This document shows positions 37,602 through 54,927 of a DNA stretch of 64,000 nucleotides, piece after piece (the stretch's first letter is position 1; each line of letters opens with the position of its first letter). This DNA is from Bacilli bacterium. GTDB taxonomy: Bacteria; Bacillota_I; Bacilli_A; RF39; UBA660. The DNA lies in the NCBI GenBank assembly GCA_017450205.1, contig JAFSVF010000007.1:44060-108059 (forward strand), read 5' to 3'. The position numbers and the translations under genes are program-made. A model generated the notes under the pieces. It was not told the DNA's origin. It worked only from the letters and a program-made list of their open reading frames with translations, and searched no databases.

Positions 37602-37624
37602 TTAATTAAGATAGGAGAATATAT

Positions 37625-38503
37625 ATGATATCTGCAAAAGATGTAAATGAATTAAGACAAAAAACTGGTGCAGGAATGATGGACTGCAAAAAAGCATTAA
37701 CTGAATGTAATGGTGACATTGAAGCTGCTATTGATTGGTTAAGAGAAAAAGGTATTTCTAAAGCTGCAAAGAAAACTGAAAGAATTGCTGCTGAAGGATT
37801 AGCTAATATTTATGTTGATGGTAACAAAGCTGCTATCGTTGAAGTAAACTGCGAAACTGACTTCGTTACAAGAAATGCTGATTTCGTTGCATTAGTTGAT
37901 GAAATTGGTAAAACAGCTGTTAAAAGTGATGCTAAATCATTAGAAGAAGTACTTGCTTTACCTGTTGAAGGAACTGAAGGAACTGTAAACGATTTAGTTA
38001 TTGCTAAAACTGCAGTTATCGGAGAAAAATTATCTTTAAGAAGAGTTGAAGTTGTTACTAAGACTGATGAAGATAACTTTGGTTCATACATCCATATGGG
38101 TGGAAAAATTGCTTCATTAGTAGTTGTTAAAGGCGCTAATGAAGATGTAGCTAAAGACGTAGCTATGCAAGCTGCAGCTATGAAACCAGCTTACTTAAAA
38201 GCTGATGACGTTCCTGCTGAAGTATTAGAAAAAGAAAAAGAAATCTTAAAAGAACAAGCTATTAATGAAGGAAAACCTGCTGATATAGCTGAAAAGATGG
38301 TTCAAGGAAGAATTTCTAAATACTATAAAGAAAATTGCTTAGTTGACCAAGAATTCGTTAAAGATTCTTCTATGGATATCAAAACTTTCGTTAAAAATGC
38401 TGGTGGTGAAGTTACTGCTATGTACAGATACGAAGTAGGCGAAGGAATGGAAAAGAGAAGCGAAAATTTAGCTGAAGAAGTTGCTAAACAATTAGCTGAA
38501 TAA
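37625..38503 (+). CDS. tsf: elongation factor Ts
   Basis: N-terminal UBA-like LRQKTGAGMMDCKKAL and EF-Ts dimerisation domains. Conserved rpsB-tsf order. Confidence 0.95.
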   Translation: MISAKDVNELRQKTGAGMMDCKKALTECNGDIEAAIDWLREKGISKAAKKTERIAAEGLANIYVDGNKAAIVEVNCETDFVTRNADFVALVDEIGKTAVKSDAKSLEEVLALPVEGTEGTVNDLVIAKTAVIGEKLSLRRVEVVTKTDEDNFGSYIHMGGKIASLVVVKGANEDVAKDVAMQAAAMKPAYLKADDVPAEVLEKEKEILKEQAINEGKPADIAEKMVQGRISKYYKENCLVDQEFVKDSSMDIKTFVKNAGGEVTAMYRYEVGEGMEKRSENLAEEVAKQLAE

Positions 38504-38510: not shown

Positions 38511-38543
38511 AAAGAGTTTATTTCATATAAACTCTTTTTTTTA
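38511..38543 (+). terminator. rho-independent terminator after tsf
   Basis: agagtttat / ataaactct stem followed by T8. Confidence 0.55.
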
Positions 38544-38694
38544 CTTATTTTTAATTTTGGTCCAAAAAATCGCATTTTTTATTCATTTTATTGACAAATA
38601 TAAGAAAAATATCATTTTTTGGTCCAATAATTAATAAAAAACTTGATTTTCATCATTTTTTGTTTATTATTAAAATTAGGAAGTGGTAAAGTGT

Positions 38695-40014
38695 ATGAAG
38701 AAGAATTTTAATAATGAATTATATTTTCAAAAACAAAAAGAAGGTCTTATTAAAAGCTTTGAAGGTGATTTTCAAAGATTTTACGTAGAAATTGGTGGTA
38801 AAACACTTGGTGATTTTCATTCAAATAGAGTTTTAAATGGATATGATCCTGATATTAAATATAAAATTATAAAAGATATAGAAATTGGTTTTGAAATTAT
38901 TGTTTGTATTAGTGCGATATCTATTATCAAAAGAAAAAAGAAAAAAGATACTAAAAAATTATATACTGATGAAGTATTAGAATTATTAGATAGATTAAAA
39001 AAAGATAAAATTAAATTTAATGTTGCTATAACTAGATATAGAGAAAATTTCCATGTAGATGGATTTATTGATAAATTAAAAGATATGAATTGTGGTGTTT
39101 ATCGTTTTTTTGAAGATACAAATTATCCTTATGATGTAGAGAGTGTTGTTTCAAAAAATGGACTTGGATCTAATGATTATATTCCTTGTACTGAAAGAGT
39201 AGTTTATGTTATTGCTCCTGGTACAAATTCTGGTAAATTTGCAGTTTGTATTTCTCAAATTTATCATGAAAAGAAACAAAAAATATGTTCGACTTATAGA
39301 AAATTTGAAACTTTCTTAATTCCTGATTATCCAATTAATCATCCTGTTAACTTAGCTTGTTCAATGGCGATGTGTGATGTTAGAGGGGATGATACAATTG
39401 ATTCAGATTATTTAAAAAAGAGAGGAATGCTTATTTGTATTGATTCTCGAGATGCTGAATCCTTTAAAATATTAAATAGAATAATTCCAAAAGAAGAAAA
39501 AAGAACAACTGTTTATGAATATTTCATTAATAATACTAGTGCCGGAATTATTGATGAAGAACTTGCTATTAAACATGCGAAAAAAGAAATTGTTAGAAGA
39601 TATAAAGAATATATAAAAGCATATAATGGTAATAAAGTAAGTCAAATTGAATTTGATGAAGCTTCTAGAATTTATAATTTGATTGATAAAAATATTATTC
39701 TTAGTAGAAATGAAATGCATGTTTTATTGAAAAACTTTATTGACCTATGGGGATTTGATTGTCAAAGTAATGTTTGTATGGAAGAGATGGGTGAGTTAAT
39801 TCAAGCCATTTGTAAATATAAAAGAGAAGACAATGATGAGAGATATATTCCAAATATTTTAGAAGAAATTGCTGATGTTCATAATATGATTATTCAACTT
39901 GAGGAGTATTTTGGTTATGAAGAAATAAGAAAAATCAGAGAAAGAAAAATATTTAGAGCTCAAAAGTATTTAATGGATGAAATAGAGGAAGGTTTAATAG
40001 GTGATAAGAAATGA
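38695..40014 (+). CDS. DUF1846/UPF0371-family protein (tentative, from recalled family pattern)
   Basis: FYVEIGGKTLGDFHSNRVLNGYDPD, VYVIAPGTNSGKF...YRKFETFLIPDYPINHPVNLA and AKKEIVRRYKEY resemble my recollection of UPF0371 (not checkable here). First gene of the overlapping operon. Confidence 0.5.
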   Translation: MKKNFNNELYFQKQKEGLIKSFEGDFQRFYVEIGGKTLGDFHSNRVLNGYDPDIKYKIIKDIEIGFEIIVCISAISIIKRKKKKDTKKLYTDEVLELLDRLKKDKIKFNVAITRYRENFHVDGFIDKLKDMNCGVYRFFEDTNYPYDVESVVSKNGLGSNDYIPCTERVVYVIAPGTNSGKFAVCISQIYHEKKQKICSTYRKFETFLIPDYPINHPVNLACSMAMCDVRGDDTIDSDYLKKRGMLICIDSRDAESFKILNRIIPKEEKRTTVYEYFINNTSAGIIDEELAIKHAKKEIVRRYKEYIKAYNGNKVSQIEFDEASRIYNLIDKNIILSRNEMHVLLKNFIDLWGFDCQSNVCMEEMGELIQAICKYKREDNDERYIPNILEEIADVHNMIIQLEEYFGYEEIRKIRERKIFRAQKYLMDEIEEGLIGDKK

Positions 40015-40457
40015 ATATATTTTTAGCATCTCCTTTTTCTCAATTTTGTGAAGGAGATTCAGATATAATTGTAGAAAATAGATGGTTTTTTGAAAGATTA
40101 ATTAAGTTTTTTAAAAAAAATAAATTTGATTATTTTTGTTCTCAAGAAAGAGAAAATTGGGGAGAAAATTATGTGAGTCCCGAAGAAAGTATTATATGTG
40201 ATGTTAATGGAATTAAGGATTGTGATTTATTTGTTGCAATTCCTGGTAATCCTATTTCAGGTGGAGTACATGTAGAGATTGGATGGGCAAGCGCATATAA
40301 TAAAAAAATGTTAGTATTTTTAGATAAGAATATTGAATATAGTCCTATGATTTTAGGATTAAAAGAATTAACTGATTGTACTTTTATTTATTATGATGAT
40401 TTATTAACTGATGAAACTGTTGATTTAATTATAAAATCAATTAAGGAGGTAATTTAA
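40011..40457 (+). CDS. nucleoside 2-deoxyribosyltransferase-fold protein (NDT/MilB-BlsM-like)
   Basis: IFLASPFS N-terminus and GGVHVEIGWASAYNKKMLVFL with a candidate catalytic Glu. Confidence 0.6.
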   Translation: MNIFLASPFSQFCEGDSDIIVENRWFFERLIKFFKKNKFDYFCSQERENWGENYVSPEESIICDVNGIKDCDLFVAIPGNPISGGVHVEIGWASAYNKKMLVFLDKNIEYSPMILGLKELTDCTFIYYDDLLTDETVDLIIKSIKEVI

Positions 40458-40458
40458 T

Positions 40459-41463
40459 ATGTATCAAAAATTATTTCCTGAAATGTTAAAATTTGATAAT
40501 AAATTTCCTTTATATTATTGGATTTCACTTTCTAATAAATGTAATGCTAATTGTAAATTTTGTGATATTCACGAGAAAGAAGATATTAATACTAAAGTAG
40601 ATGTTTTTAAATTATTGGATAATATTAAAAATATTGGTGGAAAATATGTTCAATTTACCGGAGGTGGAGAACCTTTCGCAAATCCTGAAATCTTTGATTA
40701 TTTAGAATATGCTACCAAATTAGGTTTAAATATTGTTTTTATAACTAATGGATTTTTTCTTACAGAATCAATTGTAAAAAGATTTAAAAATTACAATATT
40801 AGAGCTATTTTTGTTTCAATAGATAGTCATTTAGCAAAAGTGCATAATGAGACTAGAAGTGTTAATAAACTATTTGAAAGAGCTACTGCTGGTATAAATA
40901 ATATAAAGCATTTATATCCAAATATAAAAATAATAATTAATCATGTTTTAAATGATTCAAATATTGATGATTTAGATAAATTTATTGCGTTAAAGGATGA
41001 AATTAAATACGATTATTTAAATCCTATTATTGTAAAGGAATGTCCTGAGTTTTATTTTACAGATGATCAGATAGATGATTATAAAAATAAAACTAACTTA
41101 TTATTAGAATTGGCTAAAAATCATAATGTTGAATTTTTATATGATGATATAAATTATTTTGTTGATTCTAAATATTTAAACGATGGTTCTGATTTAAGAA
41201 AAAATGATGTTCCTTGTAATGCTTTAAATTACGCTTCTTTTATAGATTGTGTAAGTGGAAATGTTTATCCATGTGATTGCAGTGTACATAGAGATTATGA
41301 CTATTATTGTTTTGGAAATGTTTTAGCTGATAATTTAGAAAAAATATATAGTAATGATAAATGTAAACAATTAAGAAAGGAATTAAAATGTGCGAGTAAG
41401 TGTAAGTCAAAATGTGATTATGCTAATGTTCATTTTAATTTACTAGTTAATGAAAAAAAATAG
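40459..41463 (+). CDS. radical SAM enzyme with C-terminal SPASM-like Cys-rich domain
   Basis: CNANCKFC (CxxxCxxC) motif. C-terminal cysteines CNALNYASFIDC...CDC...C...CKQLRKELKCASKCKSKC. Confidence 0.85.
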   Translation: MYQKLFPEMLKFDNKFPLYYWISLSNKCNANCKFCDIHEKEDINTKVDVFKLLDNIKNIGGKYVQFTGGGEPFANPEIFDYLEYATKLGLNIVFITNGFFLTESIVKRFKNYNIRAIFVSIDSHLAKVHNETRSVNKLFERATAGINNIKHLYPNIKIIINHVLNDSNIDDLDKFIALKDEIKYDYLNPIIVKECPEFYFTDDQIDDYKNKTNLLLELAKNHNVEFLYDDINYFVDSKYLNDGSDLRKNDVPCNALNYASFIDCVSGNVYPCDCSVHRDYDYYCFGNVLADNLEKIYSNDKCKQLRKELKCASKCKSKCDYANVHFNLLVNEKK

Positions 41464-42541
41464 TATTATTCTTTTAGCGGAAGATTTTGGGTTTGGTCCA
41501 GTTACCACATTAATTGAAATAGCTAAAGAGATTAAAAGAAGAGATAAAGATATTGAATTGATATTTATTGGTCCTAAGTTTTGTATTAATAAAATAAAAA
41601 GTGAAGGATTATGTGATAAATATGTTGATATTCGTTATATGCCAGAAGAAATTGAAAAAAACATAGATCTTTTTAAAAATGCTAATAAGATCTTAGCTGT
41701 TGAGACAACTGATATTCTTATTTATTTAATTAATAATTATGATTTAAAGAATATTTATTTAGTAGATAATTTATTTTGGATGTGGGATTTTTTAGAAGAA
41801 GAATTAAAAAAATTAAAAAGATATTATATTTCCGATGTTATATCGTGTGATGAAAACATCGAAAGAATTGGACAAGGATTTAATAATTTATATAAAGTTG
41901 GAATGTTAAGACATAACTATAATAAAGATATTAAAACTGATAATAATTTGATGATTTCATTAGGCGGAGCAAAATCTTATATGTTTAATAGTGATTTAAT
42001 ATATAAGTTCTATTTAAATGTTATTAATCATATTTTAAGTAATGCTAAAGCTAAGGAATTTAAAACTATTTATATTACTGGTGGTTCTGAACTAATAGAT
42101 TATTTAAAAGATAATTTAATTGTTTTAGATAATGTTATTTTAAACACTTATAATCATGATGAATATTTAGATAAATTACATTCTTGTCGTTATGCGATTA
42201 TGTCACCTGGGCTAGGTAATTTTAATGAAATTATTCTATCTAATATTAATACAATGTTTTTATTACCAATAAATTATAGTCAATATATTCAAAGACTAAA
42301 ATTTAAAAAGTATTATGATTATTTTGATTATCAAATTAATAATAAAGAGAGTGCAATTGAAGAATATTTAGAAGAATCAATTGGAGTTAATAAAGTAATT
42401 GATAATCTTAAAAAATATGATTTTAGTAGTTTTGATGCAGAAATAGAATCATTCTTTAACAAAAATGATGTAAATAAAAAAATAGACAAGGATAAATTTG
42501 ATACGAATGGAATTTGTGAAATAGTTGATGATTTATTATAG
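41450..42541 (+). CDS. hypothetical Rossmann-like protein, possibly GT-B glycosyltransferase-like
   Basis: 363 aa. Weak resemblance to GT28/MurG-like C-terminal features (GGSE...SPGLGNFNE). Confidence 0.3.
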   Translation: MKKNSIILLAEDFGFGPVTTLIEIAKEIKRRDKDIELIFIGPKFCINKIKSEGLCDKYVDIRYMPEEIEKNIDLFKNANKILAVETTDILIYLINNYDLKNIYLVDNLFWMWDFLEEELKKLKRYYISDVISCDENIERIGQGFNNLYKVGMLRHNYNKDIKTDNNLMISLGGAKSYMFNSDLIYKFYLNVINHILSNAKAKEFKTIYITGGSELIDYLKDNLIVLDNVILNTYNHDEYLDKLHSCRYAIMSPGLGNFNEIILSNINTMFLLPINYSQYIQRLKFKKYYDYFDYQINNKESAIEEYLEESIGVNKVIDNLKKYDFSSFDAEIESFFNKNDVNKKIDKDKFDTNGICEIVDDLL

Positions 42542-42549
42542 GAGTTAAT

Positions 42550-43716
42550 ATGAAAAAGATTTGTTTTGATCCTTTTTATGGTTTAAATTATATTGGTTTT
42601 AGAGAAAAGCTTAGAGTAAATAAGATTCTTAAGAATAAAAGCTTATTTAGATATGATGGTGTAAACATGCTTTATGAGTCTGATAAAGTAGAAGAAAGCC
42701 TTAAGAACATGTTTAATGAAGATGCATTACTTGTAAATAATGGAACAAGTGCACTAAAACTTTGCTTACTAGCCAATGGAATTGGTGAAGGTGATGAAGT
42801 AATAGTTCCTTGCTTATCATTTATTGCTACAGCTGCTTCTTGTTTATCTGTTGGAGCTATTCCTGTTTTTGCAGACATTGATGAGTCATTTTCTATTGAT
42901 CCTAATTCAATAGTTGAAAGAATTACAAAAAAAACTAAAGCTGTAGTGGTTGTTCACTATCAAGGATATTCATGTGATATGGATAAAATACTAGAAATAT
43001 GCAGAAAATATAATTTAGCTTTAATTGAAGATTGTGCTCAAGCTTTTGGTAGTAAGTATAATAATAAATTAATTGGTACATTTGGAAATAGTTCTGCTTT
43101 TAGTTTTCAAGCTTGCAAAGTTATAACTTGTGGAGAAGGTGGAGCTGTTATTTCTAAAGTTAATATGGATTATATTAATAGATATGCTGATAATGGTGGT
43201 TATAGAGAAAAAGACATGATGCCACTATGGAATAAAAGTTTTACAAGTTTTGGTGAAAATTTCAAAATAACAGATTATCAAAGTGCGTTATTAAGCATTC
43301 AATTAACGAGATTAGATAAAATAATTAATCATCAAAAATTAATATTTAATGCATTAACTGAAGGATTAAATAAATATAATCTTAGAAAGATTAATAAAAG
43401 TTCTGATATTATTCCTATGTCATTATGTGTTACTTTTAAAACTAAAATAGAATGCGATAAGTTTATTGATTATATGAATGACAATGGTATTGAATTTTCG
43501 AAAAGAATAACTAATTTTTTACCCAAATATAATACATTTGAAAAAGGTTTATCCCCTTATAAAAATAATTTTCCTTATAAGAATTATAAGGTTCAAATTT
43601 GTTTAAAAAGTTTAAATCTTTTGAATAGAAGTGCTTGGTTAGTTTTGAATTCAAAATTAAGTAAAAAAGAGATAAATTATATTAAAAATAAAATGGTAAG
43701 TTATTATGAAAAGTAA
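42550..43716 (+). CDS. DegT/DnrJ/EryC1/StrS-family PLP-dependent sugar aminotransferase
   Basis: GDEVIVPCLSFIATA...PVFADID segment and the SFQACKVITCGEGG catalytic Lys motif. Confidence 0.9.
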   Translation: MKKICFDPFYGLNYIGFREKLRVNKILKNKSLFRYDGVNMLYESDKVEESLKNMFNEDALLVNNGTSALKLCLLANGIGEGDEVIVPCLSFIATAASCLSVGAIPVFADIDESFSIDPNSIVERITKKTKAVVVVHYQGYSCDMDKILEICRKYNLALIEDCAQAFGSKYNNKLIGTFGNSSAFSFQACKVITCGEGGAVISKVNMDYINRYADNGGYREKDMMPLWNKSFTSFGENFKITDYQSALLSIQLTRLDKIINHQKLIFNALTEGLNKYNLRKINKSSDIIPMSLCVTFKTKIECDKFIDYMNDNGIEFSKRITNFLPKYNTFEKGLSPYKNNFPYKNYKVQICLKSLNLLNRSAWLVLNSKLSKKEINYIKNKMVSYYEK

Positions 43717-44518
43717 TTTTACAAATGATAAATTGTATAGAGATTCACTATATTTTAGATTTACAACTAATAAGATTAAGTCATCTAAGAATTTAGATAT
43801 AGTTAAATATTTTGGTAAGAATATTTGTTTTCAATATTTTGATAGTGCAATAGATGATGAAGATATATCTTTTTTAAAAAATATAAATAAATCTTCAAAT
43901 ATTCAATTTAGATACATTAATATGGATTCTAATTTATATAAGGTATTAAACATTAATTTTATTATTGATATTACAGATAAATGGAAAGCACCTATCCTAG
44001 AATTAAAGAAAAATGAAGTTGATAATTATGTTAATTCAAAATCATATAATTTTAGAAGAATGATTAAGAAGAATGATAATTATTTAAAAGAATTAAAATT
44101 TAAAAAAGGAAATACCTTTGATTTATGGAAGAATATTTTATATATAGATCAAAATAGTTGGAAGAGTGAAGAAGAAAGTGATATGTTTAATCTTTCTTAT
44201 GAACATATTACTTTGTTATCACAAATTAAGAATTCTGATATTGAAGTTGCTTATAAAAATGGCGTTCCAGTTGGTTATTCATTATTAATTTATTATAGCG
44301 GTATATATTATGCTGCTAAATGGGGAGCAACTGAAGAAGGAAGAAAATTAAATGCTGGAATAATTTGTTTATTTAATCAAATAAAAAGGTTATCTAAGAA
44401 GAAAGACTTATATATAGATTTATGGGGAAGGAATAATAAGATTTATGATAGAATTGCTACAAGTTTTATTGATAGATGTTATTTAAGGATTAGTAAAAAT
44501 GGAAGTAAAAAGAATTAA
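43706..44518 (+). CDS. hypothetical protein, possibly FemAB/BioF2-like GNAT-fold transferase
   Basis: 270 aa. Weak similarity to Acetyltransf_6-type domains. Coupled within the operon. Confidence 0.35.
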   Translation: MKSNFTNDKLYRDSLYFRFTTNKIKSSKNLDIVKYFGKNICFQYFDSAIDDEDISFLKNINKSSNIQFRYINMDSNLYKVLNINFIIDITDKWKAPILELKKNEVDNYVNSKSYNFRRMIKKNDNYLKELKFKKGNTFDLWKNILYIDQNSWKSEEESDMFNLSYEHITLLSQIKNSDIEVAYKNGVPVGYSLLIYYSGIYYAAKWGATEEGRKLNAGIICLFNQIKRLSKKKDLYIDLWGRNNKIYDRIATSFIDRCYLRISKNGSKKN

Positions 44519-45461
44519 ACTCAAAAGTTTAAAAAATATCAATGAATTAGTTGATAATTCTTATAATGGAACATCTTTTTCATATGATTTCTTTTTGAAA
44601 CTTAAAAATGTTGAATATGTTTTATGTGTTTATGATGAAGATAAATTAGTATCTTTTATGCCATTATTTGAAGATAATGGTGATTTGAATCAATCTACCA
44701 TGTATATTCCTTATGGTGGTCCTGTAATTCTATATAATTTTCCTTCTTATAGAAAAAATATTATATATACCAGAAATATTTTAAATGTTATATGTTTGTA
44801 TTTAAAGAATAATTATAAGAATGTATGTTTATCATTAGATCCATTATTAACTGATATTATTTCTTTTGTAAAAAATGGTTTTATTCCTGAAGTTAGATAT
44901 ACTTATAAGATTGATCTAAACGATAATCTTGATATGATTTATTCTAATTTTGGTAGAGATAGAAAGAAACAAATTAAGCTTTGTAAGAATTATAAAGTGA
45001 TTTTTGATGATAAGTGTTCACTTTTTGATTTAGAAAAGGCTCTTATTTGGGAATATAACTATAGTAATGATATAAGTGTAGATTTTACCAAAAAGTATTT
45101 AAGTGAAGCTATCAAAAATAATAATGGTAAAATATTTTTAGCTTCTGATGGAGAAAAAATATTAGGTGGCGTTGCGATAGTTTGGGATAATAAAAATGCA
45201 TATATTATGTATTCATATTATGATAAAACAACAACTACAGTTATTCCTTTCTTATATTATGAGATTATTAAATATTTAAAAGATCATAATATATGTGAAA
45301 ATTTAGATTTTGAAGGATCAGTATTTAAAGAAATAGAAGAATGGAATCTTTCATTTGGATCTAAGCAAGTTTTATATTTTAATTTTTATTATGGAGAAAA
45401 TAGAGAAGAATTATTTAATGACTTGTACGATTATGGTGAAAAAAATGACAAATATGTATAA
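44499..45461 (+). CDS. FemAB/BioF2-like (GNAT-fold, possibly aminoacyl-tRNA-dependent) transferase
   Basis: C-terminal segment ...IVWDNKNAYIMYSYYD...IPFLYYEIIKYLKDHNICENLDFEGS resembles FemX/BioF2-like cores. Confidence 0.45.
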   Translation: MEVKRIKLKSLKNINELVDNSYNGTSFSYDFFLKLKNVEYVLCVYDEDKLVSFMPLFEDNGDLNQSTMYIPYGGPVILYNFPSYRKNIIYTRNILNVICLYLKNNYKNVCLSLDPLLTDIISFVKNGFIPEVRYTYKIDLNDNLDMIYSNFGRDRKKQIKLCKNYKVIFDDKCSLFDLEKALIWEYNYSNDISVDFTKKYLSEAIKNNNGKIFLASDGEKILGGVAIVWDNKNAYIMYSYYDKTTTTVIPFLYYEIIKYLKDHNICENLDFEGSVFKEIEEWNLSFGSKQVLYFNFYYGENREELFNDLYDYGEKNDKYV

Positions 45462-46320
45462 ATATTATTCTAACAGTGGTACTGAATCTTTTGATGTTAT
45501 TTTTAAATCCGATTTTTTCAAAAATGGTGATGAAGTAATTGTACCTGTTTCATTATGTGAATGTGTAATTAATTCTATTATAAAGAATTCATTAGTTCCT
45601 GTTTTTGTAGATATTGATAAAAATTTTTTGATAAAAAAAGAAGACATTAAAAAGAAAATTACCAATAAAACAAGGGCAATCATTTTTGTTGAACAATATG
45701 GTTTTGATATTAATAATGTTTGTACTTATAAGAATAAGAAAAATGAAAAAATTATAAATATATTGGATTCTTGTCAAAATATCATTAAAAATAATAATTC
45801 TGATTATGATTTTATTGTTTATTCCTTTAATAAGAATAAACCTATAAGTATTGGTAAATATTCATTATTTTATTCAAGTAAAAAAATAAATTTTGAGTAT
45901 AAAATTAGTCTTAAATTAAGGTTTATTATTAATTTTAAAAGATTATTATTTTTATTTAAATATTTAAAAAGAAGACATATTTATAATTTTATAAAAAAGA
46001 ATTTGCTTATACATGGGTATTTTATTAGTCATAGTAACTCTTCATTACATAGAATAGTATTTATTATGAAAATCACAAAAAAAGGTTTTATTAAATTAGA
46101 TGATAAATTATATGAATTTTTAGATAAGAATAATTTTAATTGTGTTCAAACTACAATTGAAGTTTCACCATTTGAAAGATTAAAAATTAAAGACGAGTTT
46201 AAACAATTTAATGATTATAGATATAAAGCATTGTATTTTAGACCATCATTCAAAAAAAGTGAATATTTAAAAGTTATTAAATACTTGAATGATATATGGG
46301 GTGATTTAAATGAAAATTGA
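45445..46320 (+). CDS. divergent N-terminally truncated DegT-like protein
   Basis: GDEVIVPVSLCECVINSI...PVFVDID...TRAIIFVEQYG and YSFNKNKPISIG mirror DegT motifs, but the protein is about 80 aa shorter. The ATG at 45445 overlaps the upstream stop. Confidence 0.4.
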   Translation: MTNMYKYYSNSGTESFDVIFKSDFFKNGDEVIVPVSLCECVINSIIKNSLVPVFVDIDKNFLIKKEDIKKKITNKTRAIIFVEQYGFDINNVCTYKNKKNEKIINILDSCQNIIKNNNSDYDFIVYSFNKNKPISIGKYSLFYSSKKINFEYKISLKLRFIINFKRLLFLFKYLKRRHIYNFIKKNLLIHGYFISHSNSSLHRIVFIMKITKKGFIKLDDKLYEFLDKNNFNCVQTTIEVSPFERLKIKDEFKQFNDYRYKALYFRPSFKKSEYLKVIKYLNDIWGDLNEN

Positions 46321-47773
46321 TTATGTACATAAAGAATTAATTTCTAGAAAACCATATTTATTAGAAGATAATTTTTGTCCAAATGTAGGTTTATTTGAAT
46401 ATGGAAAATCAGAAAACGTTGATAAAGTTTTATATGGAGCAAATGTTTATAGATATGATATTTATAACTATAGAGATGATGAAGATAGGATTAAGAACCT
46501 TGGTGGTGGTGATCCTATTCAATTTAAGACGTATAAATACATAAATAAAGATATTAATTCTTATTTAAAGAAAAATAAATTAAATGATTATCCTCATACT
46601 TCAGGTGATGAAGAAGTAAAAAATAAACTAATTGATTATCTTAAAAGTATTGGTATAAGTGATGTTAATGAAGAAGAACTTCTTATAACTGCTTCTACTA
46701 CTCATGGTTATTCTTTAATTTTAAAATCTATTATTAGGCCGCATGATGTTGTAATAATACCAACACCAACTTATGGTTTATTTGTTTATGAACCTGAAAA
46801 ACTTGGCGGAAGAGTAGAGTTTATTGAACTTCATGAAGATAAGAATTGGAAATTAGATTTAAAAGAGTTTGAAGATTTAATAATTAAAATTAATAAAGAT
46901 TTAAAGAATAAATATAAAGATTTAGGATATACTCCAAGAGTAGTTTCTATTTATCATCAAAATCCTAATAATCCTTTAGGAATTACTTATTCCAAAAAGG
47001 ATAAAAAGTATTTAAAAGATTTTTTAAAAATTTGTGAAAAATATAAATTATTGGTTATTGATGATTTAGTTTATAGAGATTCAGTATACGATTTAGATGA
47101 TATATCTATACCACTTGCTTCTTTTAAAGAATATAAAGATTGTGTTATTTCTTTATTTGGTATTTCAAAATCATTTTCCCTTGCGGCATTAAGAACTGGT
47201 TTTATACACGGAAATAAATATATTATTCAAGATATCAGAGATAGTTTATTTATTCAAATGGATTCTATTTCAATGTTAAGTCAAATAGCTTTATCTAGCG
47301 TATTTAATAATGATACAAAGAGAGTTGAATATAGAGAAAAATTTTTAAGTAAAATTAAGCAAAAATATTTAGATAACCTAGATATTATTAAATTTTTTGT
47401 CAATGGTGAGACTGATATTTCATCTAGAAATAAAAGAAGAATCAAGAGATTATTAAAAGGTAATTATAATAAGTATAAAGATGGAAATAAAGATGTAAGT
47501 ATTTATCATAATCTTATTCCTAAATCTGGATTCTTTATATTATTAGATTTTTCTAAATTTAAAGGGAAAAAGATTAATAGGAAACTTATTAAAAATGATA
47601 TAGATTTCTTAATCGAGATTTATAAGTGTTCTAAAATTAAATTTCTTCCTGGTAATTCATTTGCATGGAATAATACGGATGATATTATTGGAAGAATTAC
47701 ATTTTCTAAGCCTTTTGAAACATTGTTATTTGATTTTAAATCTTTAATGGATGTTTTAAATGGTTTTAAATAG
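46310..47773 (+). CDS. class I/II PLP-dependent aminotransferase-like protein
   Basis: NPNNPLG segment and the SKSFSLAALRTG motif containing the PLP-binding Lys. Confidence 0.7.
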   Translation: MKIDYVHKELISRKPYLLEDNFCPNVGLFEYGKSENVDKVLYGANVYRYDIYNYRDDEDRIKNLGGGDPIQFKTYKYINKDINSYLKKNKLNDYPHTSGDEEVKNKLIDYLKSIGISDVNEEELLITASTTHGYSLILKSIIRPHDVVIIPTPTYGLFVYEPEKLGGRVEFIELHEDKNWKLDLKEFEDLIIKINKDLKNKYKDLGYTPRVVSIYHQNPNNPLGITYSKKDKKYLKDFLKICEKYKLLVIDDLVYRDSVYDLDDISIPLASFKEYKDCVISLFGISKSFSLAALRTGFIHGNKYIIQDIRDSLFIQMDSISMLSQIALSSVFNNDTKRVEYREKFLSKIKQKYLDNLDIIKFFVNGETDISSRNKRRIKRLLKGNYNKYKDGNKDVSIYHNLIPKSGFFILLDFSKFKGKKINRKLIKNDIDFLIEIYKCSKIKFLPGNSFAWNNTDDIIGRITFSKPFETLLFDFKSLMDVLNGFK

Positions 47774-47782
47774 GGTGTTTAT

Positions 47783-48643
47783 ATGAATAAGTATATTGAT
47801 TTACATTGTCATTCAACTTTTAGTGATGGTGATTATAGTGTTGATGAATTAGTTCAAATGGCTAAGAATAATAATGTTGGATTTTTTAGTATAACTGATC
47901 ATGATAAAGTAGATGCTTGTTCTCATAAAGTAAATGATGAGGATATAACTATGGTTAATGGAATAGAATTATCTACTTATTATAAATATAATAATGAAAT
48001 TTGTTATATTCATTTATTGGGTTATGATTTTAATCCATATAATAAGAAATTACTTAATGAACTTAAAAGAATGAGAGAGATATTAATTGATGATAGTACT
48101 AGATTTGTTAATTGTTTATTGAGTAAAAAAATACCATTAGCTCCTAATGTTATTGAACAAATAGATGTTTCTAGTTATAGACTTATTCAGGATCAATTAA
48201 AAATTGTTATGTTAAATAATGGTTATGATGAGAAATATTATAAATTTATTAGTTCTATTATTAAAGATGATTATCCATTATATGAAGATTATGAAATTGA
48301 ATTAGGTAAAGCAATTGATATTATATTAGAAGCTGATGGTATTCCTGTTTTAGCACATCCTAATAGAATTCATATAAGCGAAGAGAAAAAAGATTCTTTA
48401 ATTAAAGAGTTAAAAAATAAAGGTCTTATGGGAATTGAAAGCAATTATTCTTATTATAGTGATTATGAATTTGATTTATATTCTAAAATAGCAAAAAAAT
48501 ATTCTTTACTTGAATCAGTTGGTTCTGATTTCCACTTTTATACTAAAGAAAATAATGTTAATATAGGAAGTGGGATAAATTCTAATCTTCTAAAAGAAGA
48601 TTGCTCACTTAAGAGAGTATTGATAGAGAGGCCATTAAGATGA
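47783..48643 (+). CDS. PHP-family metal-dependent phosphoesterase
   Basis: IDLHCHSTFSDGDYSVDELV...ITDHD motif, typical of PHP/histidinol-phosphatase-like enzymes. Confidence 0.8.
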   Translation: MNKYIDLHCHSTFSDGDYSVDELVQMAKNNNVGFFSITDHDKVDACSHKVNDEDITMVNGIELSTYYKYNNEICYIHLLGYDFNPYNKKLLNELKRMREILIDDSTRFVNCLLSKKIPLAPNVIEQIDVSSYRLIQDQLKIVMLNNGYDEKYYKFISSIIKDDYPLYEDYEIELGKAIDIILEADGIPVLAHPNRIHISEEKKDSLIKELKNKGLMGIESNYSYYSDYEFDLYSKIAKKYSLLESVGSDFHFYTKENNVNIGSGINSNLLKEDCSLKRVLIERPLR

Positions 48644-49404
48644 AAAGCAAGATAGATGAAATAATGAAGAACGCAACAATTAATGATATAAGTATTGGTT
48701 GTTCAGGAGATAGTGTTAAAGAAATAGTTAAAAACGATAAAACTTATTATTTGAAAAAGGCTAAAGGGAATAAACTTGATAAAGAATATTATATGTTTAA
48801 TTATTTAAGTGAATTACATTTAGCTCCAAAAATAGTTGAGTTTAAATTTGATGGTGAATATAGTTATTTATTTACTGAAAAACTATCTGGTGATATGATT
48901 TGTTGTGATGAAATTTTTGATGATATGAATCATGTTATTGAATTAGCAGCAAAGGCAATCAACATTTTACAATCAATTGATGTTGATACTTGTCCTTTTT
49001 ATAATAATTTAAATATTAAATTAAGAACTGCTAAATATAATATTGAACATGGATTGGTAAAGACTGAAGATATGTCTGAAGAGAGCCAAAAAAGATTTGG
49101 AAGTGTAGAAAGGGCATATGAGTATTTAGTTAATAATAAAATTGTAGAAGAAAAATTAGTGTTTTCTCATGGAGATTTAAGTATTCCAAATATATTTTAT
49201 GAAAATGAAGAAATTACAGGATTTGTTGATTTAGGAGATTCTGGAATTGCTGATATGTGGTTTGATATAGCAATTTTAGTTAAATCTTTAAGAAAAAATT
49301 ATGAAACTGATGAAGCAGAGAAGTATTTATTTAAACTATTAGGAATTGAACCAAAATATGATATTATAGATTATTATATTATTTTAACAGATGTATTTTT
49401 ATAA
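48640..49404 (+). CDS. aminoglycoside 3'-phosphotransferase-family kinase (APH(3')-like)
   Basis: VFSHGDLSIPNIFYENEEITGFVDLGDSGIADMWFDIA aligns along its length with APH(3')-III-type catalytic and Mg-binding motifs. Gly-rich loop GCSGDSV...YYLKK. Confidence 0.85.
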   Translation: MKSKIDEIMKNATINDISIGCSGDSVKEIVKNDKTYYLKKAKGNKLDKEYYMFNYLSELHLAPKIVEFKFDGEYSYLFTEKLSGDMICCDEIFDDMNHVIELAAKAINILQSIDVDTCPFYNNLNIKLRTAKYNIEHGLVKTEDMSEESQKRFGSVERAYEYLVNNKIVEEKLVFSHGDLSIPNIFYENEEITGFVDLGDSGIADMWFDIAILVKSLRKNYETDEAEKYLFKLLGIEPKYDIIDYYIILTDVFL

Positions 49405-49422
49405 AAAACAGGGGGTGATATT

Positions 49423-51066
49423 ATGCAAATATTAAATGTAAATGAGTTAGGAATGAATTTTGGGTTCGGAACATTATTTAGTAATTTATCTTTTACTTTA
49501 AATGAAGGAGAATCTATTTCAATTGTTGGTCCAAATGGATGTGGAAAATCCACATTATTAAAGATTATTGCTGGTTTAGAAAAACAAGATTGTGGTCAAG
49601 TAAGTATTAAAAAAGGTGCTAAAGTAGCTTATTTAGATCAAACTGGTGCTTCAAAGGATGATTCAAGAAAAGTATATGATGTTTTAAAAGAATCTTTTGG
49701 TAGTTTATATGAATTAGAAAAAGATATTAAAGAGTTAGAAAAAACTATGGAAGCACAACCAGACAATTCTAAAATAATTGAAAAGTATTGTGTTATGATT
49801 GATAAGTTTTCTCAATTAGGTGGATATGAGATGGATTCTACTATTAATACAGTATTATCTGGATTAAGAATTGATTCTAAAGTTCTAGAACAATCATTTA
49901 ATAATTTAAGTGGTGGAGAAAAAACTTTAATTCAATTATGTAAATGTTTAATTACTAAACCGGATTTATTGTTATTAGATGAACCAACAAACCATTTAGA
50001 TATAGAAAGAATAGAATGGTTAGAAAAATATATTAAGAATTTTAAAGGTGCTTGTGTAATTGTTTCACATGATAGATATTTCTTAGATAAAATGTGTAAT
50101 AAGATTTTAGATTTAGAAGATAAAGAACCTGAAATTTTTAATACTAATTATACTGGTTATTTAGAAGAAAAAGAAAATAGATTTGAAAAACAATTAGCTG
50201 AATATAAAGATCAACAATTAGTTATTAAAAGATTAGAAACTGAAATGAAAATGTTTGCGGAACGTGGTATGCAAACTAACAGTTCTACCTTGACAGCAAG
50301 AGCTCATGCGCTTCAAACTAGAATTAATAAAATTAAAGAAAATGCTGTTGCTAGACCAGTTAAAAGAAAAAAATCAAATATTGAATTTAATGAAGAAGCT
50401 AAATCTAGTAAAAAGATAATTCAAGTTAATGATTTAACTGTTATGTTACCAAATGCTGATCTTTTATTAGATGATATTAGTTTTGATATTAAAGCTGGTG
50501 AAAGAATTGCTTTAATTGGTTCAAATGGATGTGGAAAATCAACAATTGTTAAATCAATTATGGGTACTAATGACTTAGAGTATGATGGTGAAATAATAAT
50601 TGGACCTAGTGTTAAAATCGGATACATTCCTCAAATTATTCAATTTAGTGATGAGAAGAAGTCATTACTAGAATACTTTAGAAATGCTACTGGTTTACCT
50701 GAACAAAGGATTAGACAAATACTTGTTGGTTTCCAATTCTATAATGATTCAATTATGAAGAGAGTAGGAAATCTTTCTGGTGGTGAAAGAATGAAATTAA
50801 AATTAGCTGAGTTGTTACAAAATAAAGTTAATACATTAATTTTAGATGAACCAACAAACCATATAGATATTGATACTAAAGAGGTATTTGAAAGCGCTTT
50901 AGATGATTACAATGGAACAATGATTTTTGTATCACATGATAGATATTTTATTAATAAATTTGCGGATAAGATTTATGAAATTGATAATGGTAAATTAGAT
51001 ATTTATTATGGCGATTATGATTATTATGCTGAAAAGAAAGCTCAACAATTAGTAAGAAAAAGATAA
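49423..51066 (+). CDS. ABC-F family ATPase (tandem ABC domains with inter-domain linker; ARE/ribosome-protection-like)
   Basis: Two Walker A motifs (GPNGCGKST, GSNGCGKST), two LSGGE signatures and no TM domain. Confidence 0.9.
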   Translation: MQILNVNELGMNFGFGTLFSNLSFTLNEGESISIVGPNGCGKSTLLKIIAGLEKQDCGQVSIKKGAKVAYLDQTGASKDDSRKVYDVLKESFGSLYELEKDIKELEKTMEAQPDNSKIIEKYCVMIDKFSQLGGYEMDSTINTVLSGLRIDSKVLEQSFNNLSGGEKTLIQLCKCLITKPDLLLLDEPTNHLDIERIEWLEKYIKNFKGACVIVSHDRYFLDKMCNKILDLEDKEPEIFNTNYTGYLEEKENRFEKQLAEYKDQQLVIKRLETEMKMFAERGMQTNSSTLTARAHALQTRINKIKENAVARPVKRKKSNIEFNEEAKSSKKIIQVNDLTVMLPNADLLLDDISFDIKAGERIALIGSNGCGKSTIVKSIMGTNDLEYDGEIIIGPSVKIGYIPQIIQFSDEKKSLLEYFRNATGLPEQRIRQILVGFQFYNDSIMKRVGNLSGGERMKLKLAELLQNKVNTLILDEPTNHIDIDTKEVFESALDDYNGTMIFVSHDRYFINKFADKIYEIDNGKLDIYYGDYDYYAEKKAQQLVRKR

Positions 51067-51070
51067 TTTA

Positions 51071-51097
51071 AAGATATCATTTGATATCTTTTTTTTG
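51071..51097 (+). terminator. rho-independent terminator ending the operon
   Basis: aagatatca / tgatatctt stem followed by T6. Confidence 0.5.
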
Positions 51098-54831: not shown

Positions 54832-54927
54832 TAAAAAGGTACTTTTAAGTACCTTTTATTATGGCATATAAAAGTGGAATAATATGCAAAAACATGTTAT
54901 AATAATTGCATATTAGAGGTGGTTTAT

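Follow-up and report, generated by a model that had tools for sequence, protein, structure and literature searches.

The mildiomycin pathway is built from the same five enzyme types as the locus described here, namely MilB, MilC, MilG, MilD and MilH (PMC11784345), and the ribosomal P site is the target of the related inhibitor blasticidin S (PMC5572114). A further family relevant to this locus, DUF1846, corresponds to PyrJ, a newly described CTP synthase (preprint, bioRxiv 10.1101/2024.09.24.614635). In the operon analyzed below, putative counterparts were found for MilB (ORF2), MilC (ORF4), MilG (ORF3) and MilD (ORF5) of the mildiomycin pathway, and for BlsM (ORF2), BlsD (ORF4), BlsE (ORF3) and BlsH (ORF5) of the blasticidin S pathway. 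None of the core enzymes of the operon reaches the curated equivalog cut-offs set for the Streptomyces enzymes.

Organization of the operon

The window, that is, the whole stretch of DNA analyzed, comprises 64,000 nt from an uncultured, low-GC Bacilli bacterium (RF39; UBA660; assembly GCA_017450205.1, contig JAFSVF010000007.1, positions 44,060-108,059 of the forward strand). Its ORF list contains 12 intact, tightly packed ORFs on one strand between positions 38695 and 51066, with successive ORF1-ORF12 junctions of -4, +1, -14, +8, -11, -20, -44, -11, +9, -4 and +18 nt. ORF1 starts at ATG 38695, preceded by an AGGAAG ribosome-binding site. Independent gene calls in the same contig family are concordant, giving ORF1 a length of 439 aa and the short DegT protein one of 300 aa. 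Orthologues sharing 37-73% amino-acid identity occur with the order kept in five other loci (L010, L011, L014, L015 and L016), which argues that these ORFs are real genes and not chance occurrences. The junctions, the common strand and the orthologous loci bear out the coupled 12-gene operon proposed in the initial annotation. HMM searches with each ORF also recovered every domain it had named (DUF1846_N, Nuc_deoxyrib_tr, Radical_SAM with SPASM, DegT, the short DegT, Aminotran_1_2, PHP, APH, ABC-F with ABC_tran_Xtn, and IS110), but DUF1846 is located in gene 1 and not ninth, as its prose implied. That annotation had overlooked what DUF1846 means, as well as the MazG-like fusion and the lack of an exporter.

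The operon is flanked by the following features:

38512..38545, plus strand: AT-rich hairpin and T-run 3′ of tsf (inverted repeat I2, arms 87% complementary, then T8)
38546..38694, plus strand: upstream control region with promoter-like hexamers, a repeated motif and the ribosome-binding site
51070..51096, plus strand: hairpin AAAGATATCAtttGATATCTTT then a T-run, read from the sequence
51781..52947, minus strand: IS110-family transposase gene (PF01548, DEDD_Tnp_IS110, 2e-34; PF02371, Transposase_20, 1.6e-22)

The hairpin downstream of tsf, which was not called by a G+C-rule terminator scanner, is probably a terminator parting rpsB-tsf from the cluster, and the hairpin AAAGATATCAtttGATATCTTT is the probable operon terminator. 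The promoter-like hexamers are TTGACA at 38591 and TTGATT-16-TATTAT at 38643-38670, and two copies of TTTTGGTCCAA(A/T)AA are located 5′ of ORF1, at 38555 and 38617. Since the TTGGTCCAA motif has no counterpart upstream of the orthologous clusters, a regulatory role for it is speculative. The IS110 transposase gene adjoins the cluster and is not a member of it; no IS110 was found beside the cassette in L010, L011, L014, L015, L016 or L019.

Proposed cytosine supply

The first two genes point to the metabolism of cytosine nucleotides:

38695..40014, plus strand: ORF1, fusion of a DUF1846/PyrJ N-domain with a MazG-like NTP pyrophosphohydrolase (Pfam PF08903, 1.8e-73)
40011..40457, plus strand: ORF2, predicted CMP N-glycosidase of the MilB/BlsM/BcmB type (PDB 4jen, 9.1e-26; 5vto, 5.8e-23; 4jem, 5.8e-22)

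Residues ~1-330 of ORF1 correspond to the N-terminal domain of DUF1846/PyrJ, an ammonia-dependent CTP synthase family, and the last ~110 residues to the MazG-like domain. The UPF0371 PDB entries 7f00 and 3bh1 (~500 residues) align with residues 6-325 only, and ORF1 scores 258 bits against NF010184, for a cut-off of 631. Because the C-terminal third of PyrJ is missing, CTP synthase activity of ORF1 is doubtful. The C-terminus of ORF1 matches the NTP pyrophosphohydrolase phrog_2245 (8e-23), as observed in six of six orthologues, and its EExxE...EExxD motif is invariant. This domain pair suggests a dedicated CTP to CMP to cytosine route, in which three consecutive cytosine-nucleotide enzymes would head the operon.

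The best solved relatives of ORF2 are the CMP N-glycosidases BcmB, BlsM and MilB (9e-26 to 6e-22), in line with the MilB/BlsM fold initially annotated, and ordinary deoxyribosyltransferases match at ~1e-3. Alignment revealed FLAxPF and HVEIGWASA motifs common to ORF2 and the glycosidases; the score against Pfam PF05014 is 29.5 bits. ORF2 is thus a strong candidate for a CMP N-glycosidase.

Proposed sugar assembly

Three enzymes would build the sugar moiety:

40459..41463, plus strand: ORF3, radical SAM/SPASM protein of the BlsE/MilG type (Pfam Radical_SAM and SPASM; PDB BlsE 7vob, 4.8e-14)
41450..42541, plus strand: ORF4, predicted glycosyltransferase of a rare sister family of the CGA synthases MilC and BlsD (TIGR04467 CGA_synthase match)
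42550..43716, plus strand: ORF5, full-length DegT/DnrJ/EryC1 sugar aminotransferase (Pfam PF01041, 6.7e-74)

The alignment with BlsE 7vob spans residues 19-282 of ORF3 and includes CxxxCxxC and a C-terminal C...CxC. BlsE is by far the top match in the PDB, the next being at 2.6e-5, which agrees with the blasticidin-type radical SAM enzyme previously proposed; the score against the BlsE family TIGR04466 is 71.5 bits, for a cut-off of 400. By homology, ORF3 would act on a cytosyl-hexuronate sugar, via radical C3′ dehydration or decarboxylation.

ORF4 has no Pfam match, and among families it matches only TIGR04467 CGA_synthase, weakly (29 bits; cut-off 300). Only 24 word-sharing homologues were found among 5.8 billion proteins. 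TIGR04467 is the only family consistently matched by its relatives (20 of 22 close and 112 of 114 distant ones, best E 6e-33, with all scores below the family cut-off), so that the GT-B-like protein of the initial annotation can be read as CGA-synthase-like. In the wider glycosyltransferase family, eight NDT-GT, two GT-DegT and one GT-rSAM fusions link the core steps of the pathway. ORF4 would join cytosine to a UDP-sugar. No UDP-glucuronate supply gene is present in the cluster, and a motif search, which is a weak test, detected no UDP-glucose dehydrogenase motif in the window or related loci.

ORF5 matches sugar aminotransferases of the PDB with E down to 4e-48 and contains the SFxxxK lysine. 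It presumably corresponds to MilD and BlsH and would place the 4′-amino group.

Predicted aminoacyl transfer and tailoring

The next four genes encode predicted transferases and PLP proteins:

43706..44518, plus strand: ORF6, tandem-GNAT, Fem-type transferase (predicted-structure superposition)
44499..45461, plus strand: ORF7, second tandem-GNAT, Fem-type transferase (predicted-structure superposition)
45418..46320, plus strand: ORF8, short, divergent DegT-like PLP protein (Pfam PF01041, 1.9e-14, profile positions 46-179 only)
46310..47773, plus strand: ORF9, class I/II aminotransferase of 487 aa (Pfam PF00155, 8e-30)

The ORF6 and ORF7 models superpose best on the aminoacyl-tRNA-dependent transferases FemA, FemX and Sbb17. 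The two FemAB-like transferases first annotated are thereby upheld at the level of the fold, despite PF13480 matches (21.8 and 20.6 bits) just under the Pfam cut-off of 22. No sequence similarity was detectable between them. Both probably depend on aminoacyl-tRNA, as judged from their fold alone. ORF8, present in all cassette variants, retains the Schiff-base lysine, and its SFxxxKP and D..Q motifs are kept in eight of eight orthologues. ORF9, with generic PDB matches only, is an accessory gene limited to the 12-gene version and missing in L011, L016 and L019-L022.

Phosphatase, kinase and ABC-F protein

The operon ends with three genes:

47783..48643, plus strand: ORF10, PHP-family phosphoesterase (PF02811; NF041577, 1.8e-35, 122 bits for a cut-off of 400)
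48640..49404, plus strand: ORF11, APH(3′)-like kinase (PF01636, 7e-16; HGDxxxxN and DLGD motifs)
49423..51066, plus strand: ORF12, ABC-F ATPase without membrane domain (two ABC_tran and ABC_tran_Xtn)

ORF10 is related to 3′,5′-nucleoside-bisphosphate phosphatase and RNase AM; it is kept in all variants and inverted jointly with the APH gene in L011 and L016. ORF11 scores 193.9 bits against NF033068 APH_3p (cut-off 205) and could phosphorylate the product, as a self-resistance, or serve as a GenP-like biosynthetic kinase. ORF12, also kept in all cassette variants, exceeds the cut-off of the ribosomal-protection family NF000355 ribo_prot_ABC_F (475 bits versus 380), and its scores with EttA models are under their cut-offs. 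Its similarity to the housekeeping proteins EttA, YbiT and Uup is about that to resistance ABC-Fs, EttA being the closest in the PDB. ORF12 is a probable ribosome-protection (self-resistance) factor, as had been suggested for the ABC-F protein.

Distribution of the cassette

Ten to 12 cluster genes recur in other Firmicutes assemblies, where they take at least four gene orders and lie in unrelated neighbourhoods, with PHP, APH and ABC-F in every recurrence. The four-gene core (glycosidase, rSAM, GT and DegT) is also found in Paenibacillus periandrae and P. faecalis, where the tailoring genes differ. Decay is visible in some copies: L021 has split rSAM and ABC-F genes and L022 a split DegT gene, and the PHP gene of L014 is interrupted by an in-frame stop.

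The initial annotation had also proposed horizontal acquisition. The differing neighbourhoods of the cassette across lineages support this indirectly, but the GC content of the cluster (23.4%) is barely below that of the window (26.1%) and thus gives no sign of transfer, and the island is found on 19 of 19 contigs with an identical tsf, so that these include no island-free relative. The further proposal of that annotation, that the cluster replaces the usual pyrH-frr continuation, is conjectural; neither pyrH nor frr was found downstream of the cluster within the 64-kb window.

Proposed pathway and alternative explanations

We consider that the operon is probably a cluster for a peptidyl (aminoacyl) cytosine pyranosyl nucleoside of the blasticidin S/mildiomycin/gougerotin class, with its own resistance genes. 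ORF2, ORF3, the GT family, the Fem folds and the mildiomycin pathway all support the cytosylglucuronate-type reading with tRNA-dependent aminoacylation and ABC-F protection that was advanced initially. In this homology-based route, the PyrJ-like domain of ORF1 would make or bind CTP, which the MazG-like domain would cut into CMP and pyrophosphate, and ORF2 would hydrolyze CMP into free cytosine and ribose 5-phosphate. ORF4 would then combine cytosine with a UDP-hexuronate (UDP-glucuronate by analogy) into a CGA-like nucleoside, whose sugar would be activated or deoxygenated by ORF3. ORF3 would also generate a 4′-keto group, which ORF5 would transaminate to the 4′-amine. ORF6 and ORF7 would successively move amino acids from aminoacyl-tRNAs onto the 4′-amine and then onto the first residue, so that a mono- or dipeptidyl side chain would arise with neither NRPS nor ATP-grasp enzymes, and ORF8 and, optionally, ORF9 may perform further tailoring. 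A phosphorylation/dephosphorylation by ORF11 and ORF10 may serve producer protection or phosphate-activated deoxygenation; a cytoplasmic PHP phosphatase would, however, undo phosphorylation-based protection, which counts against our explanation. Finally, ORF12 would shield the producer ribosome, with the peptidyl-transferase centre as the expected target.

A secreted antibiotic cluster without an exporter is unusual, and the cassette is not accompanied by any conserved exporter or immunity transporter. The product could instead be a non-antibiotic cytosine-sugar nucleoside (for example one that serves in signalling, in storage or in a cofactor-like role, or one that stays associated with the cell), with ABC-F and APH having general translation and kinase functions or forming a resistance module that travels with the cassette. 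The decaying copies in L021, L022 and L014, the APH score under the APH(3′) cut-off and an ABC-F without clear resistance subclass fit this idea. Retention of PHP, APH and ABC-F through four different rearrangements nevertheless argues for a functional link with the biosynthetic genes, the ABC-F is above the ribosomal-protection cut-off, and all characterized MilB/MilC/BlsE/DegT-type pathways yield a translation inhibitor (PMC11784345, PMC5572114), making a non-antibiotic product rather unlikely. A cell-envelope pathway, in which FemABX-type enzymes would aminoacylate an amino sugar modifying peptidoglycan, teichoic acid or capsule, is very improbable.

We attach equally little credence to a viperin-like antiviral system, in which the radical SAM enzyme would dehydrate PyrJ-supplied CTP into a chain-terminating ddhCTP-like nucleotide processed by the kinase, phosphatase and pyrophosphatase. 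CTP-related enzymes do head the operon, PADLOC pVip models match ORF3 at 2e-22, and its score against NCBIfam viperin_w_prok (70.4 bits) is close to that against the BlsE profile. The viperin matches stop at the radical SAM core (residues 24-215), to which the pVip matches are likewise limited, and the viperin score is far under the cut-off of 180. The SPASM-type C-terminal Cys domain aligns with BlsE, which also prevails in pairwise searches (55.6 versus 26.7 bits). The glycosidase that releases the base, the GT, the two aminotransferases and the pair of Fem-like enzymes would be without a role in such a system. None of the nine other proteins scanned (ORF1, ORF2, ORF4, ORF6-ORF8 and ORF10-ORF12) matched a defence model of the biosynthetic or effector type; further matches came solely from the ABC-F, to generic P-loop ATPase models, and a search of the phage collection gave no match to the cassette. 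The second possibility in the initial title, that of an aminoglycoside or aminocyclitol cluster, is extremely unlikely. BtrN is a radical SAM enzyme of butirosin biosynthesis, and the operon also combines a radical SAM enzyme with an APH(3′)-like kinase and a DegT protein whose good PDB matches include 2-deoxy-scyllo-inosose aminotransferases (BtrR and related), but profile searches of the cluster genes revealed no 2-deoxy-scyllo-inosose synthase, inositol-phosphate synthase or cyclitol dehydrogenase, and the CMP glycosidase and CGA-synthase-like GT indicate a nucleoside.

As a probable source of an aminoacyl cytosine nucleoside, this operon is a good discovery lead.

Organization and genomic setting of the operon

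Analysis of the region confirmed the twelve-gene operon proposed in the initial annotation: twelve intact, co-directional ORFs lie on the plus strand between the rpsB-tsf pair and an IS110 transposase gene, and the domain assignments made there were all recovered with Pfam and NCBIfam. The window is very AT-rich (26% G+C), and the region is laid out as follows.

36645-38503: rpsB-tsf pair
38512-38545: AT-rich hairpin and T-run, 3' of tsf
38695-51066, plus strand: ORF1 (PyrJ-N(DUF1846)-MazG fusion), ORF2 (CMP N-glycosidase), ORF3 (radical SAM enzyme), ORF4 (GT), ORF5 (DegT aminotransferase), ORF6 and ORF7 (Fem-type enzymes), ORF8 (short DegT-like protein), ORF9 (class I/II aminotransferase), ORF10 (PHP phosphoesterase), ORF11 (APH(3')-like kinase), ORF12 (ABC-F protein)
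51070-51096: hairpin and T-run, 3' of the last gene, ORF12
51781-52947, minus strand: IS110 transposase gene

From ORF1 to ORF12, the successive junctions measure -4, +1, -14, +8, -11, -20, -44, -11, +9, -4 and +18 nt. ORF1 is preceded by its own AGGAAG ribosome-binding site and by promoter-like hexamers, which, together with the hairpins at both ends, makes the twelve genes look like one independent transcription unit. Five further loci, drawn from metagenomes and assembled genomes, carry orthologues (37-73% identity) in the same order; the genes are thus not chance ORFs.

A near-palindrome, TTTTGGTCCAA(A/T)AA, occurs in two copies (38555-38568 and 38617-38630) on either side of a TTGACA upstream of ORF1, and its stricter form, TTTGG.CCAAA, is confined within the window to these two sites. 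Upstream of the orthologous clusters in the other loci the TTGGTCCAA motif is not kept, which excludes a conserved operator; the near-palindrome may have arisen by chance or may serve as an operator in this species only. An Rfam scan of the window for riboswitches or leader RNAs returned only a tRNA-Met, located elsewhere.

The evidence offered initially for a recent insertion of the cluster was not supported. The IS110 gene is a neighbour only, the compositional anomaly of the cluster relative to the window is negligible and uninformative, and neither integration into a tRNA gene nor flanking direct repeats were found around the cluster. No island-free relative emerged among 19 contigs with an identical tsf, all of which carry the island (19/19). 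Searches with tblastn gave no match for ORF4 in plasmids and none for ORF7 in phages.

Several other genes of the window are unusual. Ribosomal protein S2 (36645-37601) carries a Lys/Glu-rich C-terminal extension of ~70 aa with a Rho_N/SAP-like domain (PF07498) at its end. Directly after a single-domain response regulator, a 138-aa ORF (36005-36421) with a weak, sub-threshold match to the M29 aminopeptidase N-terminus could represent either the remnant of a truncated gene or a small domain of a new kind. A Fic protein (54919-55536) scores 301 bits against the NmFic-type protein adenylyltransferase model (cut-off 230). Finally, a GspE/PilB-like secretion ATPase with long Pro/Glu/Gln-rich low-complexity extensions at both ends (55561-57480, minus strand) and a pilin-like protein (62171-62782) suggest a type IV pilus or competence system.

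Predicted cytosine-nucleotide functions at the head of the operon

The pneumococcal DUF1846 member Spd_0310 (PyrJ) was reported as an ammonia-dependent CTP synthase, on the basis of synthetic lethality with pyrG, rescue by cytidine and conversion of UTP to CTP by the purified enzyme (preprint, bioRxiv 10.1101/2024.09.24.614635). Residues 6-325 of ORF1 correspond to the N-terminal two-thirds of this DUF1846/UPF0371 family and align with the pneumococcal protein (7f00) at 1.4e-55. With the model of full-length PyrJ (NF010184, ~494 aa), ORF1 obtained 257.8 bits against a cut-off of 631, over profile positions 2-333 of 494. Unlike PyrJ, ORF1 is devoid of the C-terminal third (~165 residues) and harbors instead ~110 residues with an invariant EExxE...EExxD signature, identified by PHROGs as an NTP pyrophosphohydrolase (8e-23) in 6/6 orthologues. 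PHROGs was decisive for this MazG-like region, which is barely seen by Pfam or in the PDB (E of 0.16 and 0.33). In a contig of the same species (L027, 2741-4129), the gene call for the ORF1 homologue gives 462 aa and no Pfam match is recorded, an indication that the allele of the PyrJ-MazG fusion there is frameshifted or variant.

ORF2 (148 aa) lies barely above the cut-off of the Pfam deoxyribosyltransferase model. Comparison with solved structures placed it with the MilB/BlsM-type CMP/hydroxymethyl-CMP N-glycosidases: the best matches were BcmB (9.1e-26), BlsM (5.8e-23) and MilB (5.8e-22), against about 1e-3 (7e-4 or weaker) for generic or true deoxyribosyltransferases. The FLAxPF motif and HVEIGWASA, which holds the catalytic Glu, align between ORF2 and the CMP N-glycosidases. 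The operon thus starts with three successive activities predicted to act on cytosine nucleotides, namely those of a CTP-synthase-like domain, an NTP pyrophosphatase and a CMP glycosidase.

A putative four-enzyme scaffold core

ORF3 is a radical SAM protein whose C-terminus is of the SPASM type. Among solved structures its best relative is BlsE (4.8e-14), nine orders stronger than the next one (2.6e-5), in an alignment that spans CxxxCxxC through C...CxC, common to both proteins. Against the BlsE/MilG equivalog model (TIGR04466), ORF3 scored 71.5 bits for a cut-off of 400.

ORF4 gave no match in Pfam or in the PDB. The cytosylglucuronate (CGA) synthase equivalog model, TIGR04467, matched residues 164-280 only, with 29.1 bits (E 5e-7; cut-off 300). 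The same model was matched by 20/22 close and 112/114 distant ORF4 relatives, with a best E of 6e-33 and none at the cut-off, and no other model was consistently matched across these proteins. These consistent, sub-cut-off matches place ORF4 in a sister family of the CGA synthases, outside the equivalog. The family is rare, with 24 homologues in a word-indexed search of 5.8 billion proteins and 854 members by full profile search of 1.84 billion representatives. The most distant word-sharing homologue (33% identity) is found among seven genes, all devoid of Pfam matches (L013, 1-7769), which may form a very different cluster around the same GT family.

Among the representatives of the profile search, the GT is fused with each of three partners, as listed below (P numbers designate proteins of the wider ORF4 family).

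CMP-glycosidase-like-GT fusions (n=8): P0229, P0251, P0252, P0272, P0285, P0301-P0303
GT-DegT fusions (n=2): P0175, P0191
GT-radical SAM fusion (n=1): P0261

The fusions argue independently for a single pathway that comprises all four activities, in which the GT uses as its substrate the base set free by the glycosidase. The fusion proteins also point to additional, so far uncharacterised clusters for cytosine nucleosides.

ORF5 is a DegT sugar aminotransferase of full length and ordinary type (PF01041, 249.7 bits), belonging at the family level only with MilD and BlsH, the PLP enzymes that act at C4'. A motif search for UDP-glucose dehydrogenase in the window and the related loci, which is a weak test, found none.

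Fem-type enzymes and candidate tailoring enzymes

ORF6 and ORF7 fell just below the PF13480 cut-off of 22 bits (21.8 and 20.6, respectively) and are members of neither PF13480 nor PF02388 by sequence; the NCBIfam search of both gave zero matches. AlphaFold models built from homologue alignments were confident (pLDDT 88 and 90.5), and both displayed the two GNAT domains in tandem and the intervening substrate cleft that characterize FemABX proteins. The best structural matches of the ORF6 model were Sbb17 (score 17.4), Weissella FemX (16.7), FemA and FemX (14.8), and MprF. Sbb17 (PDB 9wqx), which ranked first for ORF6 and third for ORF7, was solved in complex with streptothrisamine, and its homologue Orf11 uses Gly-tRNA to aminoacylate this amino-sugar antibiotic intermediate (PMC12945691). 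The two proteins were also considered as paralogues, and this was rejected as neither BLASTP nor hhalign detected mutual similarity.

ORF8 is a shortened, divergent DegT-like protein in which the SFxxxKP lysine and the D..Q motif are kept in 8/8 orthologues; this conservation makes it probably an active PLP enzyme. The PDB matches of ORF9 were all generic class I aminotransferases, and it has no close relative that would hint at its specificity.

Putative resistance genes

ORF12 combines two ABC_tran domains with an ABC_tran_Xtn linker, has no membrane domain, and obtained 475.1 bits with the ribosomal protection-like ABC-F model NF000355 (cut-off 380). It lies below the cut-offs of the EttA and Uup models as well as those of every model for the named ABC-F resistance subfamilies (Vga, Lsa, Msr, Sal, OptrA and producer type). 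In the PDB, EttA ranked best, with PoxtA and VmlR/ExpZ close behind at about equal closeness. ORF11 narrowly missed the APH(3') model NF033068 (193.9 bits, cut-off 205), with its kinase motifs intact. The nearest group of the ORF10 PHP phosphoesterase is 3',5'-bisphosphate nucleotidase/RNase AM, with a score far under the cut-off. No exporter is conserved with the cassette.

Related loci and distribution

The same twelve genes are found in the same order in three further loci (L010, L014 and L015). An 11-gene form (L011 and L016) has no ORF9 and carries the APH and PHP genes inverted as a pair. A much commoner form, to which most of the 173 ORF7 homologues belong, consists, in this order, of LysR, PHP, glycosidase, radical SAM, GT, DegT, Fem1, Fem2, methyltransferase, short DegT, ABC-F and APH genes; it has neither ORF1 nor ORF9, and the methyltransferase occurs only in this L019-type variant. 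In the index of the assembly collection, one ORF7 homologue of the commoner (10-gene) variant appears in 88 blocks, and the product may accordingly be ecologically relevant in the sampled communities.

Genes next to the Fem-containing cassette
Window, 12-gene form: directly after rpsB-tsf
L010, 12-gene form: between vanY and mutS
L014 ("Bacillales bacterium UBA6331"), 12-gene form: directly after mnmA, with lepA further upstream (3115-7055)
L015 ("Eubacteriales" assembly), 12-gene form: directly after lysS, with tilS further upstream (501-6802)
L011, 11-gene form: a few genes downstream of fusA-tuf (1-2747)
L016 (Clostridia assembly), 11-gene form: unrelated neighbourhood
L019, commoner form: a few genes downstream of rplU-rpmA (1146-2066)

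In several lineages the cassette lies no more than a few kb from translation-related housekeeping genes, which may be due to chance, the genomes being small, or may reflect a preference for regions of high expression. Some copies are disrupted, with the radical SAM and ABC-F genes split in L021 (5826-6841 and 12710-14371), the DegT gene split in L022 (7981-9167) and an in-frame stop in the PHP gene of L014 (16311-17180); either decay or assembly errors would account for them.

The four-gene core alone (glycosidase, radical SAM, GT and DegT) was found in Paenibacillus periandrae (L017, 5064-20433) and P. faecalis (L018, 6878-19007). There it neighbours arginase-family, PEP-utilising/PPDK-like/ATP-binding, class III aminotransferase and P-loop kinase genes, together with a second radical SAM/SPASM gene and NTP_transf_5; no Fem-type enzyme is present in these two loci. 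The core, which recurs with differing partners, thus behaves like a module that forms the scaffold, and the remaining genes like exchangeable modules for tailoring and resistance. Retention of PHP, APH and ABC-F through every rearrangement of the Fem-containing cassette is the strongest argument for counting these three genes as part of it.

Comparison with characterized pathways

In blasticidin S and mildiomycin biosynthesis, a glycosidase, a CGA-synthase-type GT, a BlsE-like radical SAM enzyme and a DegT enzyme produce a 4'-amino pyranosyl-cytosine core (PMC11784345; PMC5572114; PMC3715490). The matches to CMP N-glycosidases, BlsE, the CGA synthase family and the Fem fold support the blasticidin-like interpretation put forward in the initial annotation.

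Mildiomycin involves MilB, MilC, MilG, MilD and MilH, the last being a putative tRNA-dependent aminoacyltransferase for the seryl side chain (PMC11784345). The operon contains the same five enzyme types as this mil cluster of Streptoverticillium rimofaciens: MilB (CMP/hydroxymethyl-CMP N-glycosidase) corresponds to ORF2, MilC (CGA synthase) to ORF4, MilG to ORF3 and MilD to ORF5, and MilH, by description, to ORF6 and ORF7. However, the CMP hydroxymethylase MilA, the arginine-modifying MilM/MilN and the carrier protein MilI have no equivalent here, whereas the operon has two Fem-type enzymes instead of one and adds the PyrJ-N/MazG fusion, PHP, APH and ABC-F. It also belongs to another phylum, with 23% GC compared to about 70%, and its GT and radical SAM enzyme are far under the equivalog cut-offs.

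In the bls cluster of Streptomyces griseochromogenes, the cytosinine core is made by BlsM (CMP hydrolase), BlsD (CGA synthase), BlsE and BlsH (PLP); BlsM is the second-best solved relative of ORF2, and BlsE the best of ORF3. The beta-arginine of blasticidin S comes from an aminomutase and is joined by an ATP-dependent ligase, and self-protection relies on leucylation and export. In contrast, the operon has neither aminomutase nor exporter; its side chain would be added by Fem-type enzymes, and ABC-F and APH would provide protection. The target of blasticidin S is the ribosomal P site (PMC5572114).

The Fem-type enzymes resemble those of the BD-12/streptothricin type (Orf11 and Sbb17), which share the fold and transfer an aminoacyl group from tRNA to the amine of an amino-sugar antibiotic intermediate, but the sequence identity is only 9-12%, and the acceptor is streptothrisamine, not a cytosine nucleoside. 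BcmB, the closest solved relative of ORF2, likewise comes from a low-GC Firmicute, Clostridium botulinum, and shares FLAxPF and (H)xEIGWASA; its bacimethrin pathway uses a hydroxymethylase, a methyltransferase and a kinase, is not known to include a GT, radical SAM, DegT or Fem enzyme, and yields a free pyrimidine, not a nucleoside. Bagougeramines, gougerotin analogues from Bacillus circulans, indicate that Firmicutes are able to make this compound class, and their cluster might be related to this operon.

Proposed pathway and alternative explanations

The four core enzyme types and the MilH precedent in known pathways led us to propose a route. Observation extends to the families and folds of the proteins, to fused genes and to genes conserved together; from these we infer every substrate, the step order, tRNA use, sugar and biological activity. 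ORF1 would convert CTP to CMP, which ORF2 would hydrolyse to cytosine for ORF4 to join to a UDP-hexuronate. ORF3 would then activate the sugar by radical chemistry to form a 4'-keto group, and ORF5 would transaminate it to the 4'-amine. One or two aminoacyl groups would be added by ORF6 and ORF7, followed by further tailoring by ORF8 and, where present, ORF9, while ORF12 would shield the producer's ribosome.

Two roles can be envisaged for ORF11. The kinase could inactivate the product by phosphorylation; APH-type self-resistance is known alongside ABC-F proteins for A201A and hygromycin A, and a cytoplasmic phosphatase such as ORF10 fits this role poorly. Alternatively, it could act like the GenP-type kinase of gentamicin 3',4'-dideoxygenation, which activates a hydroxyl for PLP-dependent elimination, with ORF8 as the putative PLP partner.

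Weaknesses of the proposed route are that every core enzyme is under the curated cut-off of its Streptomyces counterpart, that part of PyrJ is missing from ORF1, and that neither a conserved exporter nor a UDP-glucose dehydrogenase motif was found. Four other explanations were weighed against it: the nucleoside may not be an antibiotic, or the operon may modify envelope glycans, act in defence in the manner of viperins, or make an aminoglycoside. Defence draws on ORF3, whose radical SAM core gives about equal scores with the viperin and BlsE profiles, a further weakness of the route. ORF3 was the sole biosynthetic match in a PADLOC scan of ORF1-ORF4, ORF6-ORF8 and ORF10-ORF12, and this match (pVip, 78 bits) covers the radical SAM core only; with the viperin model NF038283 it reached 70.4 bits for a cut-off of 180. 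The SPASM C-terminus and the pairwise scores favour BlsE as the probable relative, and the defence system was rejected. The "aminoglycoside-like" part of the initial description was likewise abandoned, since cyclitol enzymes are absent. None of the four explains the glycosidase-GT fusions and the linked ABC-F and APH genes together.

Significance

Cytosylglucuronate-type peptidyl nucleosides such as blasticidin S, mildiomycin and gougerotin are valued ribosome inhibitors and selection agents, known, to our knowledge, almost only from actinomycetes. Full-text literature searches, covering few subscription journals, returned no earlier description of such a Firmicute cluster; prior work may exist. 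The scaffold logic is known; the phylum and the precursor-supply fusion are new, and both the amide-forming strategy, with its two Fem-type enzymes, and the resistance set differ. Taken as a whole, our joint reading is tentative and stands slightly short of an even chance: the operon would represent, as its first member, a widespread cluster family not described before, from uncultured anaerobic Firmicutes with rarer core-only Paenibacillus relatives, that makes new cytosine pyranosyl nucleoside translation inhibitors. Two Fem-type aminoacyl-tRNA-dependent transferases, acting in sequence, would assemble the whole of their peptide side chain, a dedicated PyrJ-MazG line from CTP to CMP would feed the cluster, and protection would rely on an ABC-F protein whose specificity, new for this family, counters a P-site/PTC nucleoside, and on a phosphotransferase/phosphatase pair.

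The operon is a solid natural-product discovery lead rather than a conceptual surprise, and the cultured P. periandrae and P. faecalis could serve for experimental study of the scaffold. A related but clearly diverged pathway in uncultured low-GC Firmicutes would broaden the class in chemistry as well as in taxonomy, and would offer a compact case in which tandem tRNA-dependent Fem-type enzymes assemble a peptide. It would also give the PyrJ/DUF1846 domain a second, secondary-metabolic context, and the ABC-F protein and the kinase may be a natural reservoir of resistance against P-site/PTC nucleoside antibiotics.
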